From an uncultured Pseudomonadota bacterium (GTDB lineage: Bacteria; Babelota; Babeliae; Babelales; JAUPTZ01): DNA of 64,000 bases. Positions 9,001 through 36,000 of the stretch are shown in pieces; the stretch's first letter is position 1; each line of letters opens with the position of its first letter. The DNA lies in assembly GCA_964429275.1 (NCBI GenBank), contig CAYSBJ010000001.1, forward strand, positions 1-64,000, read 5' to 3'. The position numbers were made by a program.

Positions 9001-12000
9001 TTCCCGAAAAAGTTAATGGCTCTGCAAAAAGAGATACTCCACACACTATTCCAATACCCACCATCCAAAGACAGTTGCGTAACATTTCCTTCATACCGAC
9101 CACCTTTTTTAAAATAAGAAGCAGCTAGCATGATAATCGAGACAAACGCAAGGGTGTCAATGAAACCGCAATTTTCATCGCTTACGAGAATGACCGGTTT
9201 TTTTGCGACGCCGCGAACCCCCTTTGACCTGAATAAGAGATGGCGACTGTACCAGATTACCTGTTGCGAAGTGAGACGTATTTTTTGGTAGCACAATATT
9301 ACCGGCATACGGTCCAGTTAGTTCAGCGGCAGAAGCAAAATTTGCCCCGTACCCCTGTATGCGCGCGTTGTTTGTCAAGATCAACTGGTCCGCGGGAACA
9401 TTTATTGATCCTGCGAGCGCACCATTTCCCAGTGCAAAAGCCACCGGCGTATCAAGAATCAGCCGTCGAGACGCATCAGCCATTAAGGTACCACCGAAGT
9501 CAACATAGACAACCCCTGATTGATCGGCGCCATTAACCGGCTGTGCTGGCGGTAAACCATTCGTTCCACGAGCGCTTACACACCAACTATCAGTAGCAAC
9601 TCGCAACGTACCGCCACCCGTTACCCCAGGATTAAACTTTCTACTCTCATCAAACGTCACTCCCGTTAACGGAATATTCCATGGAGAATACCCATCAGTA
9701 GACCCAAACGGTAATGGCCAACCAATATTTATTCGCGATTTATGCGCTAAATAGAGAACATGTGTTGCCTTATCTCGCGCTGAAACATCTTGCTCACGGA
9801 AATCGCTCAGCACCAACTCAATCGTCGACGGCATTAATGCCGTTGCTCCTGGCGTCAGTGCACTACGATACACATCAATAAAGGCATCGCGAAGCAAAGC
9901 CGACTGGGTACCGTTACTCATGCGATTTGCTGAAGAACCAAGCTGGAAGACCGCTCCTCGCCTATGCAACGCATCCAACGATCGACCTCGAGAATAGGCA
10001 AGCAATGAAGAACTATTATTGCCATTCGCGCTATCATTTTCACCACTATCTCCGTTGTTTTCATGAATACTCCATCGCACACCAGCACTTATCAGCGACT
10101 CTTGGCACGCAATAGTACTGTTGCACAACGAAATACTTGGTCCATATGACTCACCAAACAAAACTGCTCGCTCGCCACCAATAATAGTCGGCAATGCCGT
10201 CATCGTTACGCTTGGCGCTTGAACCACGCCAAGATTGCGAGAAACGTCACTGTGAATGTATGTCACGCGATCAAAATGTACAGGTGCATTAACCAAAATA
10301 GAAGATGCGTTATAGCGTCTATACGAAGCGCCAACGATGAGTGGTCGATTACCATACAGTGGATGTTCATACGCAGTAGGAAGATCATTTACAGCCCTAT
10401 TTTCTGCATCAGCAAGAAAAGTCTCTATCCCCGCAGCAATGCCCTGTAAAAATACCTGCTGTACGAGGGCTAATGGAGGGAAATTATGAGGCAAGATTCC
10501 ACGGTCTGTCACTTCGTACCACGCACCACTGGCAAAATCGTACCCCCAATCTTGGATACCGGTAGTCCACAATCCAGTTGCTGTATTATAAGACCAAGCA
10601 GTAGTTGTTGGGTTATATACCCAGGTATGGCCAGAACCGTGCTTATACCACTTGTTCGCACTATTCGCGGCACTGATCCAATAAGGCTCACTGCCATCGA
10701 AATAGTACCAACCATCAGCAAAGGTTCCCCCATCAGGCATCCAACGATTATGAGCAGAAGTATACTGCCAACGAGTATCACTAAAAGACCACGCCCATGC
10801 ACCAGTTGTGTTATTGTACGTTACTTGGTTCTTGCCAGAACTATCGTTCCAGTAATACGGCCAAGGATCCAATGGACTATAAGAAGCCGTCCCATTACCA
10901 AAAGTATCGACACCCTTCAGCACTTGTGTTGACGATGACCATGTTAAACTCGGCGAAGAAGAAAGCGCATGTGACACAATTAAAGCACGTCGTATTTGGT
11001 GAGCAATCATAAACTGTGGCACAAATCGTGGCGGTAAAACACCTTCTGGCAAACTCGACCACGAGTCACTTATAAGATCATATGACTCGCCTGAATAGGT
11101 ATCATTACTCGGATCATACGTAATAGTTACATCACCATTAGTCCACTGACGCATGCTATAAGAATACGTCCAGCTTTCTGTCTCATCCGCGTTGGTCCAG
11201 GTGATAGTTGCCGGATCGTACGTCCATTTTTCTGATTCATTCAGCAGGTTTTGCCAGATCTTAGTACTACTGTTGTAACTGTACGATATCGGATTAAATG
11301 GATTAAGTGAATGAGCCCAACTCCATGAACCATCTACTGCCGCAGTAAATGCAATTTTACCGTCAACCCATGATGGTTCAGCTGGTGGAACTAATGTTGC
11401 AATAGCAAGCCTATCGCCCAACGTATTATCATACACAATACGCATGCCTTCGCTCGTATTCGAGGCAAGCCACGTGCCATCATCTTGCCGCGCAAAGGTT
11501 AAGCCTGCAATAGACCCAAATGAAAGAAATCCTGACGCCAAAGCAGAATCAAAGCTTGTGCGAATTTTTGCTACCTGCCGAGCTACAGATGGTGGTTGGT
11601 AGCCAGAAAGCGCCGGTGGCGTACCCGCTACTAACACCCATGTTTGTGCATACTCATCAAAGCGCCAGACTGTTTTATAAGCATTACTTACCGCAACACT
11701 TCCCCATGTCAGCGTTAGCGGATCATACCGCCAACGAATTGCATTGGCAGGATCATACCAAACATTAATCGCTGGGTAATAAATCCAATGCGCACCGAGT
11801 ACTGCTGGGGTTGCAGGATTATATTTATACCAATTTTGCGTTGCAGTTCCGCCGTTGAGCAACTTCCATGAATCATACACCCCACTAACCATTGGGCCAG
11901 TTACTATGGAAGTACTTGGATTATAGGTCCACGTACGTGACGGTGAGCCCAGTGTGTGCGTCCATGTCCACGCGTTGGTGCTTGGTGTATACACCAAAGA

Positions 12001-33000: not shown

Positions 33001-36000
33001 AAGGGAGTAATCACCATGTATGAACGGATATGTACTTACCCTCGAACCAGAAATAACACCAGTTTCCGTATTATAAGTACCGGTGAAATCACCAGTGCTA
33101 TTGGTAATCGGATAACTACTTCCAGACGCAGACCCTACTGTCCAATCAGCCTTACCACTTCCCGCAAAAACACCTCCTGCGAGGAAAGCATTTAGAATGC
33201 GAGCACTATACATTTGTTGTACCAGTGGGAGCGGCGGCGTAGTAGCAGGAAGCGACGCTCCTGCTGAAAACGGAATCCACGGGCTACTTGTTAACGGTAG
33301 GTCGTACAACCATTGTGTCCCACTTGCCACATGTTTCCATAAACCAGTCTCTGCTTGCCATAACCATTTTACTTGGTCACTTGCACCAATATGAAAAACC
33401 CAGTACCCGGTCGCCGGATCAAATGTCCAGACCTGACTCCCCCCTGCCGTTTGTGTCCACACTTGCGTTGACGCATTGTACGTCCACGTATTTGTTCCAC
33501 CAACGTTAGTCCATGTACCGGAAGTAAAAGTATACGCCGGTGATCCACTACCAGATGCATACCAAGAGTTGTTACCGCTATTGAGAAGATAAGAAAAATG
33601 TACTGCCGGTGCCGCAGGAGCACTGCTACCATCACTGCGCCATGCAATAACAGTTGTCGTCGTATCCGTTGGAATAGTAAGCGTTGCGCTATCGTTAAAA
33701 AGCCCACCAGACAACGTCCACTGAGCAGCACCAGTTTTTTCTACCACACTTACTGAAGAAAGCTTATTCCACAAAGAATCAAGTATCGCTTTCTGAACTA
33801 CAAACAGAGGCGGCAAGCCAGCAGATGGCTGCCCACTATAGTTGGATATTTGCTGCCAGGATCCCGCAAACATAAGATAGCGCCACACCCAGGCACGATG
33901 CCCGTCATTACAAGACCAGTACCCAGTAGACGGTGTATAAGTCCAAACTGCAGCACCAGAATTTTGAGACCACGTAAGCGCAGTTACATTCGACTGCCAT
34001 GTCGTAAGCGTATCGCTACTCGTCCAGGTGTTTGCATGAAGATCGTACGACCACTGCTCACCAGTTTGCGCATCAATCCAAAAGCCAGTAGTACTGTCAT
34101 ATGCCCAGCTCTCTGACCACTGTGGATTAATCGAACGTGTCCAACTAAAATCACCGGATTGGATGTTATATGAGGCAAGATCTGCAGCACTGTTTGCCAC
34201 CGAATAGTAACTGTTAATAGTCCCCTGGACCACACCAGATACCGTGCTGTACGTTACCGCAAAATCATTAGTACTATTAAGTAGGCTATACAGACCTGCA
34301 GTCTGAGACTGAATTATCCAATCAGTTTTGCCACTTTCAACCAGAGCACCAAGCCCCAGCACAGCATTTAACGTTGACTGCGCATACATTTGCTGCAGAA
34401 TAGGCACTGCTGGTTTAACTGCAATGGTAACAGAACTTGGGTTATAAATAGCCGTCCACGTTTCAGTCGTAAAGTCATATGACCAAGTCGTCGACGATGG
34501 GATGTGCGTCCATTGAAAAGTAACTGGATTCCACTGCCACGCAGGATTACCAGTAATTCCTAGCGTACATACCCAGCAGCCAGTGCTACCGTTATATACC
34601 CATTTTTCTGGAGCTCCTACAGTCACCTGCCAAGTCTTGGTGCTCGGTGTATATACCCACGTACGACCACTCGTCTGATTCCACGTTTGTGTGCTGCCAG
34701 TAAACGAATACGTTCTACCAGTAGTAGTATTTCGCCATGCAATATCACCCGTTATAAGATTCCAGTTCGCGACAAAGATAGAGCTGGCTTGCGGCACCGT
34801 CGAATTGTCTCGCCATGACAAGGAAGCCGATGAACTGGTTGCGCTCAAAATAACCGAATCATTATACGGCCCACCAATAGCGCCCCACTCTACTATTTGC
34901 GAACCATTTGCGACTGTCCGTGATAATGTGTAAGGGGCAGCACTACACCCAACACTTACAAAGACGAGAACTAAACCTACCAGGCACTGCCGTATATTCA
35001 TGAGAGGACTCCATCAATTTCACGTCCCGTGTGGTCAATTTGAATAGAAGGAATGGTTACGTAGCCATTCGGAGGAAAACCAAACTGACTCAACACTGAA
35101 ACAAAACTCAGCTCACCTTCAATATCCAGTGCATGCTCACCATCTAAACAGCGTGCATCAGATCCTTCATTTAAAATCGGATTTCCATACCGATCAATTA
35201 CAATTGATTCTGTCGCTGAGAGCACTCCATTGCTATCAAGCACTGGACAAAAAGTACCATCGTATACTCCAACACCAATCGTAACATCAAGCGTTTCTGC
35301 ACCAGTGTCAGAATCGGTAGCAACTTCATTTACTATAGTTCCAGAATCAGAGGCAGCGCCACAGCGGAAAAAACAGCCTGCAGTACCTTCTAATACTATT
35401 GTGGCAAAACTCGTACCGGCATAAGACATGTCATATGATACGTTAGCTGAAGCACCATATGTGCCCAGTTCATCAATAATGAACGCCGAAGGATTGTGCA
35501 ATTTTACCGTAGAAGTAGTCCCCGCGCTTCCACCAAGCTGCAAAGGATCCACCGCCTGATTGGTTGTACCAGCAACGTAATCCAAAAAAAGATTATGCCG
35601 TATACGCAACTGCCCATTATCACCCAAAATAAAACCTGGTTGATACCCTTTAATTTTTTGTGAAGCCGCCCAATCGCTTGTTTCAAGAGAAGGTGCATGC
35701 GATAAATTTGAAGCTAAATATGGATACGTAGTATTGTTGTTAACAACTACAAGCCCACGCCGCATACTTGCATCACGATCAAGCCACGCGGGCAGATCTG
35801 CTTCTACATCCTCAACTAAAGTGCTATAGGCAAGATCATCGACGATACTAACTAGTGCAAGCATACCTGCTCGCTTATTAGGGAAGACATTTTCACGCAA
35901 GTCAGTTGCAATTACTGCACCACTTTCGCCAGTGCCAACTACCAACGATCCCCAAATATTAATTCCTGCATCAGAGCCAAGGCCAGAAATAATCCCTGGT

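Follow-up and report, generated by a model that had tools for sequence, protein, structure and literature searches.

The analysed window, a stretch of 64,000 nt, carries on its minus strand a cluster of five genes built around a giant one. The latter (g00004, 9175..35001, minus strand) encodes 8,608 aa followed by a stop codon, which predicts a mature protein of ~944 kDa with a pI of 4.6. Its coding sequence is uninterrupted within one open frame 8,612 aa long, the longest of the 1,024 raw ORFs of at least 150 aa and 2.14% of the 1,207,998-bp genome. Upstream lie the genes of a 1,171-aa paralogue (37655..41170, minus strand), which has a signal peptide and carries two domains, A and B, in one chain as an intact beta-helix, and of an 886-aa partner (34998..37658, minus strand), with a signal peptide, Trp-hairpin repeats (aa 47–190), and domain A (aa 336–881). 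Downstream are a 1,733-aa paralogue (3902..9103, minus strand), in which a signal peptide, A, and B are followed by a ~670-aa C-terminal extension, and the last gene of the cluster (2100..3872, minus strand), whose 590-aa product has a signal peptide and ends in ...AGCRVTF. This last protein is possibly an outer-membrane beta-barrel; it had no match in Pfam, NCBIfam, or the PDB, and the ESM Atlas returned only unnamed clusters and one Phenol_MetA_deg lead. Its gene is kept beside a 1,733-type gene in G003, L014, L015, and L016.

The genome-wide survey's note had placed the start of the giant at 34797, giving 8,540 aa and no signal peptide. The codon there is GTG, and the frame stays open for another 204 nt upstream, to an ATG at 35001 that is preceded by GGAG at 7 nt and overlaps the stop of the upstream gene by 4 nt (ATGA). 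The 68 residues added begin with MNIRQCLVGLVLVFVSVGCSAAP, and residues 1–22 (34936..35001, minus strand) form a clear signal peptide, judged by inspection, with cleavage at MNIRQCLVGLVLVFVSVGCSA/AP. Because the start at 35001 yields an 8,608-aa protein with a signal peptide, the earlier caveat was dropped. G003, G001, and L015 share this start and its overlap with the upstream gene, L014 has a 2-nt gap instead, and the N-terminus is kept in G003 (47% over residues 1–192) and in shorter family members. To judge from its signal peptide, the giant is a Sec-exported protein.

The survey had also feared that the repeat number was mis-assembled. An assembly artefact or a decaying gene, with repeats inflated or collapsed or an unexpressed ORF, could be suspected because the sequence belongs to a metagenome-assembled genome of 8 contigs, no RNA run contains the stretch, and in the Logan contigs of the likely source run the gene is interrupted by one break (25-nt overlap at 21788–21812). 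However, mis-assembly is unlikely because the longest exact DNA repeat in the coding sequence is only 22 nt and the units are 30–55% identical in protein, so that an assembler would have nothing to mix up. In a second sample, contigs matched at 99% or more, without differences, across all 30 bins into which the 20 kb compared was divided. A stop-free frame of 25.8 kb is not expected by chance, and the G003 orthologue is intact, with collinear units. We consider an artefact extremely improbable.

The giant contains 553 Trp (6.4% of its residues), in line with the earlier count of 551 and 6.5%. Only one raw ORF, of 166 aa and possibly not a gene, has a higher share (6.6%), and the next shares among the raw ORFs are 5.5%. 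The reported 9-residue period held up well, as 247 of the 552 successive Trp-to-Trp spacings are exactly 9, against 20.8 ± 4.4 (maximum 32) in 200 shuffles of the same protein. Trp is evenly distributed as far as about residue 8250, at 13–21 per 250 aa, and then falls to 4 and 0.

A profile HMM of the unit replaced the earlier estimate of ~21 super-repeats by 19 full super-repeats of ~390 aa (12265..34425, minus strand; aa 193–7579), one half-unit, and ~600 aa of degenerate units. The N-terminal half-unit (34444..34899, minus strand; aa 35–186) corresponds to the second module of a super-repeat (profile positions 235–389, E 3e-24) and is also present in G003 and the ~1,600-aa relatives. All short family members carry a homologue of the degenerate region (10423..12237, minus strand; aa 7589–8193), namely the ~600 aa ahead of their domain B. 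Each super-repeat consists of two homologous ~195-aa modules, as the survey had proposed (hhalign of half against half: probability 99%, E 3e-18, 184 columns). The survey's figures of 54% identity and 36 invariant columns, 19 of them Trp, came from 12 units; over all 19 units, mean pairwise identity is 41% (30–55%), with 22 invariant columns, of which 15 are Trp. Likewise, its marker motif, counted 12 times, occurs as PPLP 16 times and once as PPLF. The net charge of the array is −289.

Each module contains one amphipathic helix (PPLPLxQQ... or GLPPLVVVQKA...) and then ~15–16 short strands with a 9-residue period, (T/S)x(T/V)W(T/S)Y(N/D)x(T/G/S). The AlphaFold2 model of two super-repeats (pLDDT 84.5, pTM 0.66) has 4 helices and 64 strands, and 50 of its 53 Trp lie within strands, so that nearly every strand bears a Trp, which agrees with the short beta-hairpins proposed before. 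The body of the giant would string together about 42 such ~195-aa modules (two in each of the 19 super-repeats plus the partial and degenerate units), each made of an amphipathic helix and a ~16-strand antiparallel meander. With every 9-residue strand-plus-turn, one face of the meander would gain Trp/Tyr and the opposite face Thr/Ser.

As stated in the survey, no Pfam family matched (0 at E ≤ 1, both halves of the giant scanned), and the sub-threshold Kelch motifs it had mentioned did not appear in that scan. Nor were there matches in NCBIfam (E ≤ 0.1, one unit and the last 609 aa), PHROG, PADLOC, or the PDB sequences. The earlier analogy with the YD shell of Rhs and teneurin proteins, a hairpin cocoon enclosing a C-terminal toxin, is not supported in the form given. 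The YD shells of Rhs proteins, Tc toxin BC components, and teneurins share with the giant long runs of short hairpins with one conserved aromatic per repeat. In Foldseek, teneurin and Rhs shells come out on top (E 2e-10 to 1e-7), and the local hairpin geometry superposes at 2.9 Å over ~75 residues. However, the TM-scores are 0.09–0.12 with an rmsd above 30 Å, and LRP2 and WD40 propellers score nearly equally. Rhs cores carry the cleavage motifs DPxGL and PxxxxDPxG and the YD signature YDxxGR; regular expressions for these (DP.G[LWF], P....DP.G, YD..G[RQ], and G..[RK]Y.YD) found nothing in all 8,608 aa, and no YD repeats (RHS_repeat, PF05593; NCBIfam) were detected in the scans described above. 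Given the low TM-scores and the missing YD motifs, the likeness is therefore probably that of a generic antiparallel meander and not of a closed shell, and the YD-shell reading, largely refuted, is very improbable.

Another possibility is that each super-repeat closes into a sugar-binding propeller, making the giant an array of lectin-like Tectonin/Kelch-like domains. The unit profile weakly matches (E 6e-11 to 7e-4) Tectonin (PF19193) and Kelch proteins in their Trp-bearing hairpin blades, where distances of 9, 18, and 19 between Trp occur too, ~390 aa and ~32 strands are compatible with a propeller of 7–8 blades, and the LRP2 and WD40 propellers are among the Foldseek matches, with E-values of 1e-8 to 1e-7. 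In contrast to these proteins, the module of the giant combines a helix with ~16 strands, no Pfam match was found in it, and no propeller-level structural match was obtained. We judge propellers improbable. Single-layer beta-sheets, namely the central sheet of Borrelia OspA and the TCP G-box of CPAP/SAS-4, gave structural scores in the tool's "common arrangement" range, but these sheets have 5–20 strands, lack a Trp ladder and a helix per module, and showed no sequence relation to the giant.

The survey mentioned neither the partner gene, nor the neighboring paralogues, nor the operon, and it had described the whole protein as repeats, but the last ~420 aa are not. Domain B (9232..10452, minus strand; aa 8184–8590) is paralogous to aa 764–1125 of the 1,171-aa neighbor and aa 584–1066 of the 1,733-aa neighbor (blastp E 1e-46 to 5e-46), and this paralogy, the fold of the paralogue, and the alignment mark it as the predicted C-terminal half of a right-handed beta-helix. 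Domain A of the 886-aa partner is the predicted N-terminal half; in the predicted fold of the paralogue, A and B together superpose on solved beta-helices. None of the four paralogues matched any Pfam or NCBIfam family (Beta_helix (PF13229), Pectate_lyase, and Autotransporter were absent at E ≤ 1), and a PDB profile search gave a single chance-level match (E 0.28). A shell-enclosed toxin at the C-terminus was also considered and rejected, as the neighboring proteins carry a homologue of these 420 aa in the second half of their beta-helix. Domain B is followed, after an invariant ...VK, by a polybasic tail (9178..9231, minus strand; aa 8591–8608) with a net charge of +9 over 18 aa, and a K/R-rich tail after VK is found in 10 of the 11 aligned family members.

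The A-only gene adjoins the Trp-repeat-B gene in all five loci having both, and in L016 a single 2,240-aa protein combines Trp repeats, A (35% to the 886-aa protein), and B (40% to domain B of the giant). Complex prediction for A and B gave a median score of 0.77 (runs 0.91, 0.14, and 0.77), with 0.00 for the best of three controls, and passed a mark that 116 of 157 solved complexes attained, as did 2 of 215 mismatched pairs; this pass is partly expected from likeness, the two together making up a domain that the paralogues have whole, and one of the three runs scored 0.14. The runs agree in at least 31% of contacts, with a partner pLDDT of at least 60, and the predicted interface brings the C-terminal rungs of A (aa 836–886) against the N-terminal part of B (B residues 31–71) in parallel register. 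In these models, the giant appears to attach by its end to the product of the gene just upstream: the two half-helices would stack after export and so join the giant fibre to its partner. Among right-handed beta-helix proteins, the closest comparisons are the SRRP binding region (5ny0), PL6/alginate and pectate lyases, phage tailspikes, and autotransporter passengers (Pet, Hbp, Ag43, and Fap2), but here the helix is split between two genes and no C-terminal barrel was found.

A family search of 1.84 billion representatives returned 45 matches at E ≤ 1e-3 and 10 at E ≤ 1e-30, the latter with lengths of 1,595–1,804 (six proteins), 4,060, 6,297, and 7,212 aa. The orthologue in G003 noted by the survey is the 6,297-aa member, with 43% identity over 6,389 alignment columns, whereas the flanking orthologues are 63–67% identical. 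Relatives have 1, 2, 13, or 19 super-repeats, and the array may have expanded from the single super-repeat of the ~1,600-aa proteins to 19. The giant and its partner are part of a five-gene cluster for exported proteins that is conserved within one Dependentiae/Babeliales lineage. The source bacterium carries the label Candidatus Dependentiae/Babeliales, whose members are obligate parasites or symbionts of protists.

Nothing in the giant (Pfam, E ≤ 1) pointed to an outer-membrane route: we found neither an autotransporter barrel nor a TPS domain nor an RTX/T1SS signature. At the same threshold, no Pfam family of any kind matched it or its four cluster neighbors, although the 590-aa neighbor may be a divergent barrel. 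The best ShlB (PF03865) match in the whole genome, at 14.4 bits, is below the cut-off and lies inside BamA. A conserved membrane anchor, lipobox, or sortase-type signal was likewise absent from the giant. A TolC-like OEP gene is present elsewhere in the genome.

The giant RTX adhesins MpIBP, LapA, and SiiE resemble it in their megadalton size, their tens of tandem beta-rich modules serving as an extender, a ligand-binding or anchoring region at one end, and a repeat number that varies among relatives. Adhesins of this type lack a Sec signal peptide and carry a C-terminal T1SS signal; they are built from Ig-like/BIg modules and Ca2+-binding RTX repeats. The giant, in contrast, has an N-terminal signal peptide, a helix-plus-meander module, a polybasic C-terminus, and a half-beta-helix completed in trans, and no HemolysinCabind or Ig family matched it (Pfam, E ≤ 1).

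Taken together, these features make it somewhat probable that the giant is a Sec-exported, strongly acidic surface fibre or adhesin of ~0.94 MDa, joined to its partner by the split beta-helix. The gene, its repeats, the family, and the synteny are observed, and the module fold, the beta-helix assignment, and the A–B docking are computed predictions; its cell-surface location, length, adhesion, and the role of its tail are what we infer. The fibre, roughly 0.15–0.33 µm long by a loose estimate, would most likely serve host contact. The beta-helix fold is typical of adhesins, tailspikes, and polysaccharide lyases, and the beta-helix head, the aromatic ladder, or both would bind glycans of the host surface, while the basic tail would hold one end of the fibre on an anionic surface.

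The protein might instead be a secreted effector or scaffold inside the host cell or on the membrane of its vacuole, with the array forming a matrix or coat around the parasite and the tail binding acidic host lipids or acting like an NLS. The conserved K/R-rich tail, which we take to resemble eukaryotic polybasic membrane-targeting or NLS motifs, is counted in favor of this, as are the signal peptide seen by inspection and the faster divergence of the giant than of its neighbors. Dependentiae are also described as exporting many ORFans with a presumed action on their hosts, and the account of the isolate Chromulinavorax destructans gives signal peptides on 44% of CDS and many ORFans (PMC6561590). 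However, no machinery was identified here to carry a folded, beta-rich 944-kDa protein across a host membrane, and the predicted docking to a co-encoded partner and the putative outer-membrane protein in the operon better suit a cell-attached assembly. We regard an effector as unlikely. A structural coat or sheath of the envelope, S-layer-like or spanning the periplasm, which would protect the small infectious cell outside its host without specific binding, seems to us similarly unlikely. A huge, acidic beta protein rich in Thr/Ser and aromatics, with uniform modules, would suit such a role, as would the presence in the same cluster of several exported beta-helix paralogues and of a possible outer-membrane protein, and the retention of the gene as repeat number goes from 1 to 19 across relatives. 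Yet coat proteins are usually abundant, small or medium-sized, and self-assembling, a change from 1 to 19 units would alter any lattice, and a beta-helix head is a feature more characteristic of adhesins and depolymerases.

Returning to the surface fibre, we tentatively propose that the ~195-aa helix plus 16-strand Trp/Tyr-ladder meander may be an undescribed fibrous module, of which about 42 could form a rigid, sub-micron "tryptophan-zipper ribbon" that would rank among the longest single-chain bacterial beta structures. The ribbon might be tethered non-covalently, through a split beta-helix completed in trans by the translationally coupled upstream product. A protist parasite with a 1.2-Mb genome may use such a fibre to catch its host or to be swallowed by it, and the number of repeats, from 1 to 19, might tune its reach.

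The giant gene occupies a single uninterrupted minus-strand frame running from 35001 to 9175 and, translated from its first ATG, encodes 8,608 residues. It is the longest of the 1,024 ORFs of at least 150 aa collected in a raw scan of the genome (1,207,998 bp in 8 contigs, 98% complete by the tool's figure) and accounts for 2.14% of the genome's DNA. The protein contains 553 Trp (6.4%), a share surpassed in the whole-genome scan only by one ORF of 166 aa, possibly spurious; its commonest residues are Thr, Ser, Ala, and Gly, and it has only 29 Cys. The distance between successive Trp is exactly 9 in 247 of the 552 pairs, where 200 shuffles of the same protein gave 20.8 ± 4.4 (maximum 32), and the Trp density remains even, at 13–21 per 250 aa, until about residue 8250, beyond which it falls steeply. 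The open frame, the Trp counts, the shuffles, and the ORF scan thus confirm the Trp-rich giant with nine-residue spacing described in the genome-wide survey's note.

The survey had called the start at 34797, a GTG, and had listed as a caveat that no signal peptide was found there. The frame stays open upstream to the ATG at 35001. A GGAG precedes this ATG by 7 nt, and the ATG shares bases with the stop codon of the gene before it (ATGA). Starting there adds 68 residues beginning MNIRQCLVGLVLVFVSVGCSAAP; judged by inspection, they form a signal peptide, in which a hydrophobic core follows a positively charged n-region and small residues mark the cleavage site. Shorter relatives and the orthologue of the related genome G003 (6,297 aa, 47% identity from residue 1) conserve the added residues. 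Given the upstream ATG, the GGAG, the ATGA overlap, and this conservation, the caveat was dropped. A lipoprotein anchor was rejected on inspection, as the Cys at position 19 lies outside any conserved lipobox; the equivalent region of the G003 protein reads ...YSGVC|NS, and the other relatives have no Cys there. No RNA dataset was listed as containing window positions 28000–37900.

Repeat boundaries were taken from an HMM built on the units. A half-unit (aa 35–186) is followed by 19 full super-repeats of ~390 aa (aa 193–7579) and by degenerate units (aa 7589–8193). Pairwise identity among the 19 units is 30–55% (mean 41%), with 22 invariant columns, 15 of which are Trp. Each unit consists of two halves that are homologous to one another (hhalign probability 99%, E 3e-18, 184 columns, 19% identity), so that the true module is ~195 aa long. 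The nine-residue period has the consensus (T/S)-x-(T/V)-W-(T/S)-Y-(N/D)-x-(T/G/S), which on a strand would put Trp and Tyr on one face and Thr and Ser on the opposite one.

The survey had also warned that the number of repeats might be mis-assembled. The longest exact DNA repeat within the 25.8-kb coding sequence is 22 nt, and pairwise blastn of the units gave short HSPs only. In Logan contigs of the probable source run, the giant sequence comes in two pieces overlapping by 25 nt at window positions 21788–21812; this break lies inside the gene, is bridged by the MAG assembly, and has no sequence difference on either flank. A second sample from the same study covered all 30 bins of a 20-kb stretch at ≥99% with no substitutions or indels listed, and none of the Logan pieces listed spans the entire 20 kb. 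Two "joints" in the Logan result X1 were 40-letter secondary matches of one contig, which we take as short repeats, not rearrangements. Since the units have diverged in DNA and the Logan contigs agree, a wrong number of units appears unlikely.

Two consecutive super-repeats (778 aa) were modeled with AlphaFold2 from 30 aligned unit pairs, taken from this genome and from G003 (mean pLDDT 84.5, pTM 0.66). In the model, each module starts with a helix of ~17 residues (4 in all), there are 64 strands of 3–7 residues, and 50 of the 53 Trp lie inside strands. From this model, each repeat module is predicted to combine an amphipathic helix with an antiparallel beta-meander. The analogy with the YD-repeat shells of Rhs and teneurin proteins proposed in the survey holds over a few hairpins only: such shells head the Foldseek matches (E 2e-10 and weaker), and in the re-inspected list teneurin-3 scores 6.1 (74 residues, 2.9 Å) and the Rhs protein Tse15 5.9, next to 6.7 for OspA. 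A true Rhs shell was rejected as very improbable, as the matches have a TM of only 0.09–0.12 with an rmsd >30 Å, a motif search of the giant found no YD or Rhs motif, and no Rhs family came from the Pfam scan of the whole protein or the NCBIfam scan of one unit and the last 609 aa. LRP2 and WD40 propellers come close behind in the same list, and a beta-propeller reading of the super-repeats was considered and set aside as very improbable. The predicted beta-meander with its helix is retained below.

Searching 1.84 billion representative proteins with the 19-unit profile gave 45 proteins at E ≤ 1e-3, 10 of them at E ≤ 1e-30. The strong matches form one family with a common order: signal peptide, half-unit, super-repeats, ~600 aa of degenerate units, a ~420-aa domain B, and a K/R-rich tail. 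Its members carry 1 (~1,600 aa, n = 4), 2 (~1,800 aa, n = 2), 13 (G003, 6,297 aa), or 19 (the giant) full super-repeats, and proteins of 7,212 and 4,060 aa are more distant members. Among 40 related genomes searched, three of the four congeners matched (one weakly), and with this query no match came from the 36 genomes of the order's other genera. In a FastTree tree of the giant (W) and G003 (T) units, read without reference to support values, six cross-species sister pairs were found, collinear with an offset of six (W12–14 with T06–08, W18–19 with T12–13); some clusters in the N-terminal part of the array are lineage-specific, and the last unit is closest to the single-unit relatives. The collinear pairs and lineage-specific clusters indicate that a large part of the array already existed when the two species diverged and that it grew further in the lineage studied here.

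The weak matches (E 6e-11 to 7e-4) included Tectonin and Kelch propeller proteins, DUF3078 proteins, and a subtilase. Several of those inspected have Trp runs of their own, with 39 nine-residue spacings in the S8 subtilase (...WLFTPAGQDWLFTPAGQDW...) and 24–28 in the DUF3078 proteins; hence, the nine-residue Trp hairpin may be a small, widespread repeat that has gone unrecognized, and what seems peculiar here is the module of 195 aa together with the giant array that it builds. Such long exact-9 Trp runs, in the unrelated proteins P0038, P0036, P0041, and P0054, lie outside every Pfam family. A 1,790-aa ORF elsewhere in the genome (contig C1, 116498–121870, plus strand, Trp 2.5%), with a 1,792-aa counterpart in the genome G004 (G004:C123), weakly matches the unit in its Trp-hairpin part (E 1.4e-4) and may be a further carrier of the hairpin.

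Blastp among the window's proteins revealed two domains, A and B, common to the giant and three of its neighbors. The 1,171-aa protein (37655–41170, minus strand) has both (A at aa 68–707, B at aa 764–1125), as does the 1,733-aa protein (3902–9103, minus strand), which adds a ~670-aa extension. The 886-aa protein directly upstream of the giant (34998–37658, minus strand) carries Trp hairpins at aa 47–190 and only A at aa 336–881, stopping at A's end, and the giant carries its repeats and only B (aa 8184–8604). AlphaFold2 modeled the 1,171-aa protein with a pTM of 0.82 and a pLDDT of 74 (18-row alignment); Foldseek matches to this model were weak (best E 0.03), yet every one of them was to a beta-helix. 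From this layout, the model, and its matches, A and B are predicted to be the N- and C-terminal halves of one right-handed beta-helix, which in the 886-aa/giant pair is split over two polypeptides. The extension of the 1,733-aa protein (aa 1066–1733, ending ...YRINRY) had no match in any library searched, and its ESM Atlas hits (0.80–0.83), to unnamed viral clusters, were uninformative.

In each of the five loci with both genes (this genome, G003, G001, and the loci L014 and L015), an A-only gene (607–895 aa) comes immediately before the Trp-repeat-B gene; the two overlap by 4 nt in four of them and lie 2 nt apart in L014. On the metagenome contig L016 (2711–9433, plus strand; P0037), Trp hairpins, A, and B are fused in one chain of 2,240 aa, whose A is nearest the 886-aa protein (35% identity, E 7e-143) and whose B is nearest that of the giant (40% identity, E 3e-69), followed by 1,733-type and 590-type genes. 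This fusion would be a "Rosetta stone" for the split pair. Pattern-based scans of genomes and metagenomes, which are no census, found domain B at only 3 + 3 loci.

The complex of aa 336–886 of the 886-aa protein with the last 425 aa of the giant, each given as an alignment, was predicted with a score of 0.77 (runs 0.91, 0.14, and 0.77), the best of three controls scoring 0.00. Of 157 solved complexes, 116 reach this mark, as do 2 of 215 mismatched pairs; these counts hold only roughly here because the alignments were user-built. The runs share at least 31% of contacts, with a partner pLDDT of at least 60, and in the contacts predicted with confidence the last rungs of A (aa 836–886 and 714–770) meet the first part of B (residues 31–71 and 87–95) in parallel register. 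Such a pass was partly expected, as the halves come from a domain that is intact in the paralogues. The prediction supports binding and does not show it: the halves appear complementary, and binding in the cell lies beyond what it shows. Together with the conserved adjacency and the L016 fusion, it suggests that the halves meet.

The alignment of B closes with an invariant Lys (...VK), after which 10 of 11 members have a K/R-rich tail, GGSRRRKKTGHSRKR in the giant; intact 1,171-type paralogues end at the equivalent VK or IK. The mature giant has a mass of ~944 kDa and a pI of 4.6, with a net charge of −289 for the 19 units and +9 for the last 18 residues. We infer that the fiber, acidic and self-repelling, may be anchored electrostatically at one end, where the tail would hold it to an anionic surface, either the LPS of the bacterium itself or a membrane of the host.

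The five genes of the cluster stand close together on one strand, with overlaps of 4 and 4 nt and then gaps of 71 and 29 nt. The cluster is syntenic in G003, L014, and L015, and four of its genes are in G001, whose contig was read in part. The last one (2100–3872, minus strand) encodes a 590-aa protein ending ...AGCRVTF (...AGCLVAF in G003, ...ASCSVVF in L016), which we take to resemble the C-terminal signal of outer-membrane barrels. Pfam, NCBIfam, ESM Atlas, and PDB searches did not identify it: the PDB gave two chance-level matches, and the ESM Atlas matches were unnamed clusters, apart from a single lead, Phenol_MetA_deg (21% of members), whose recognition fell short of the tool's mark. 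Pfam (E ≤ 1), NCBIfam (E ≤ 0.1), and PHROGs and PADLOC (E ≤ 0.01) returned nothing meaningful for the giant, whole or in parts, or for its cluster neighbors; in the PDB, the unit profile had no match at E ≤ 10 and the A–B profile a single chance-level one. The genome encodes BamA, three secretins, and a TolC-like gene, and no ShlB-type transporter scored above the cut-off.

Most window ORFs have a signal-peptide-like N-terminus and no Pfam family, which fits the 44% share of signal peptides reported for the Dependentiae isolate Chromulinavorax destructans (PMC6561590). Window positions 41274–63000 look like a dense block of exported ORFans, on both strands (574, 333, 193, 304, 549, 500, 903, 530, 597, 803, and 176 aa), nearly every ORF having these two features apart from tmk, holB, feoB, and a cytidine deaminase. 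At 45996–48061, as at 77855–79968 of G003 contig C6, tmk, holB, and a gene for a 229-aa membrane-like protein adjoin the cluster (53–76% identity), and the genes in between differ between the two genomes, making the cluster's upstream border variable. A second giant ORF (contig C1, 469503–485375, minus strand) encodes 5,290 aa with a signal-peptide-like start, followed by a 1,564-aa ORF; with 0.6% Trp, its composition is unrelated to that of the Trp giant.

We propose that, after export by Sec, the C-terminal half-helix of the giant would stack on the half-helix of the 886-aa protein. The joined beta-helix, a fold shared with adhesins, tailspikes, and polysaccharide lyases, would form the "head" of a fiber whose stalk would be made of ~42 Trp-ladder modules. 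By our estimate, such a fiber could measure from 0.15 μm if rolled (~3.5 nm per module) to 0.33 μm if extended (~16 strands × 0.48 nm per module). Retrieved database records label the organism as Candidatus Dependentiae/Babeliales, and the samples containing it come from freshwater and wastewater. The Dependentiae parasitize protists; they are widespread and have hardly been brought into culture. For a sub-micron parasite whose hosts are phagotrophic protists, the most plausible role of a fiber this long would be in touching the host or being taken up by it. Rival readings, all judged less probable, are an effector acting inside the host, an envelope coat, lectin-like propellers, an Rhs shell, and an artifact. 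The faster divergence of the giant (43% identity to its G003 orthologue, against 63–67% for its neighbors) and the widely varying number of units fit a host-facing role, and its occupying 2% of a minimal genome suggests strong selection.

Giant repetitive surface proteins are an already known kind; the protein family at the core of this one appears new. Neither the module nor the split beta-helix nor the operon is found in Pfam, NCBIfam, PHROGs, PADLOC, or, by sequence, the PDB, and no description of them was found in the literature searched, which included PMC6561590 and PMC11573180. With Trp on almost every strand, the module is a possible natural "Trp-zipper" scaffold and a model for the solubility of very long beta-meanders, and the Rosetta-stone fusion, the gene overlap, and the complex prediction point to a beta-helix of two polypeptides apparently reassembled in trans. 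The natural variants with 1, 2, 13, and 19 super-repeats are a ready-made fiber-length experiment. The locus should interest structural biology as well as Dependentiae biology, the functional role of the giant being one that we only infer. To our knowledge, the mechanism by which Dependentiae attach to and enter their hosts has not been described; this five-gene cluster of exported proteins, conserved and unannotated in every library searched, offers a concrete candidate for it.
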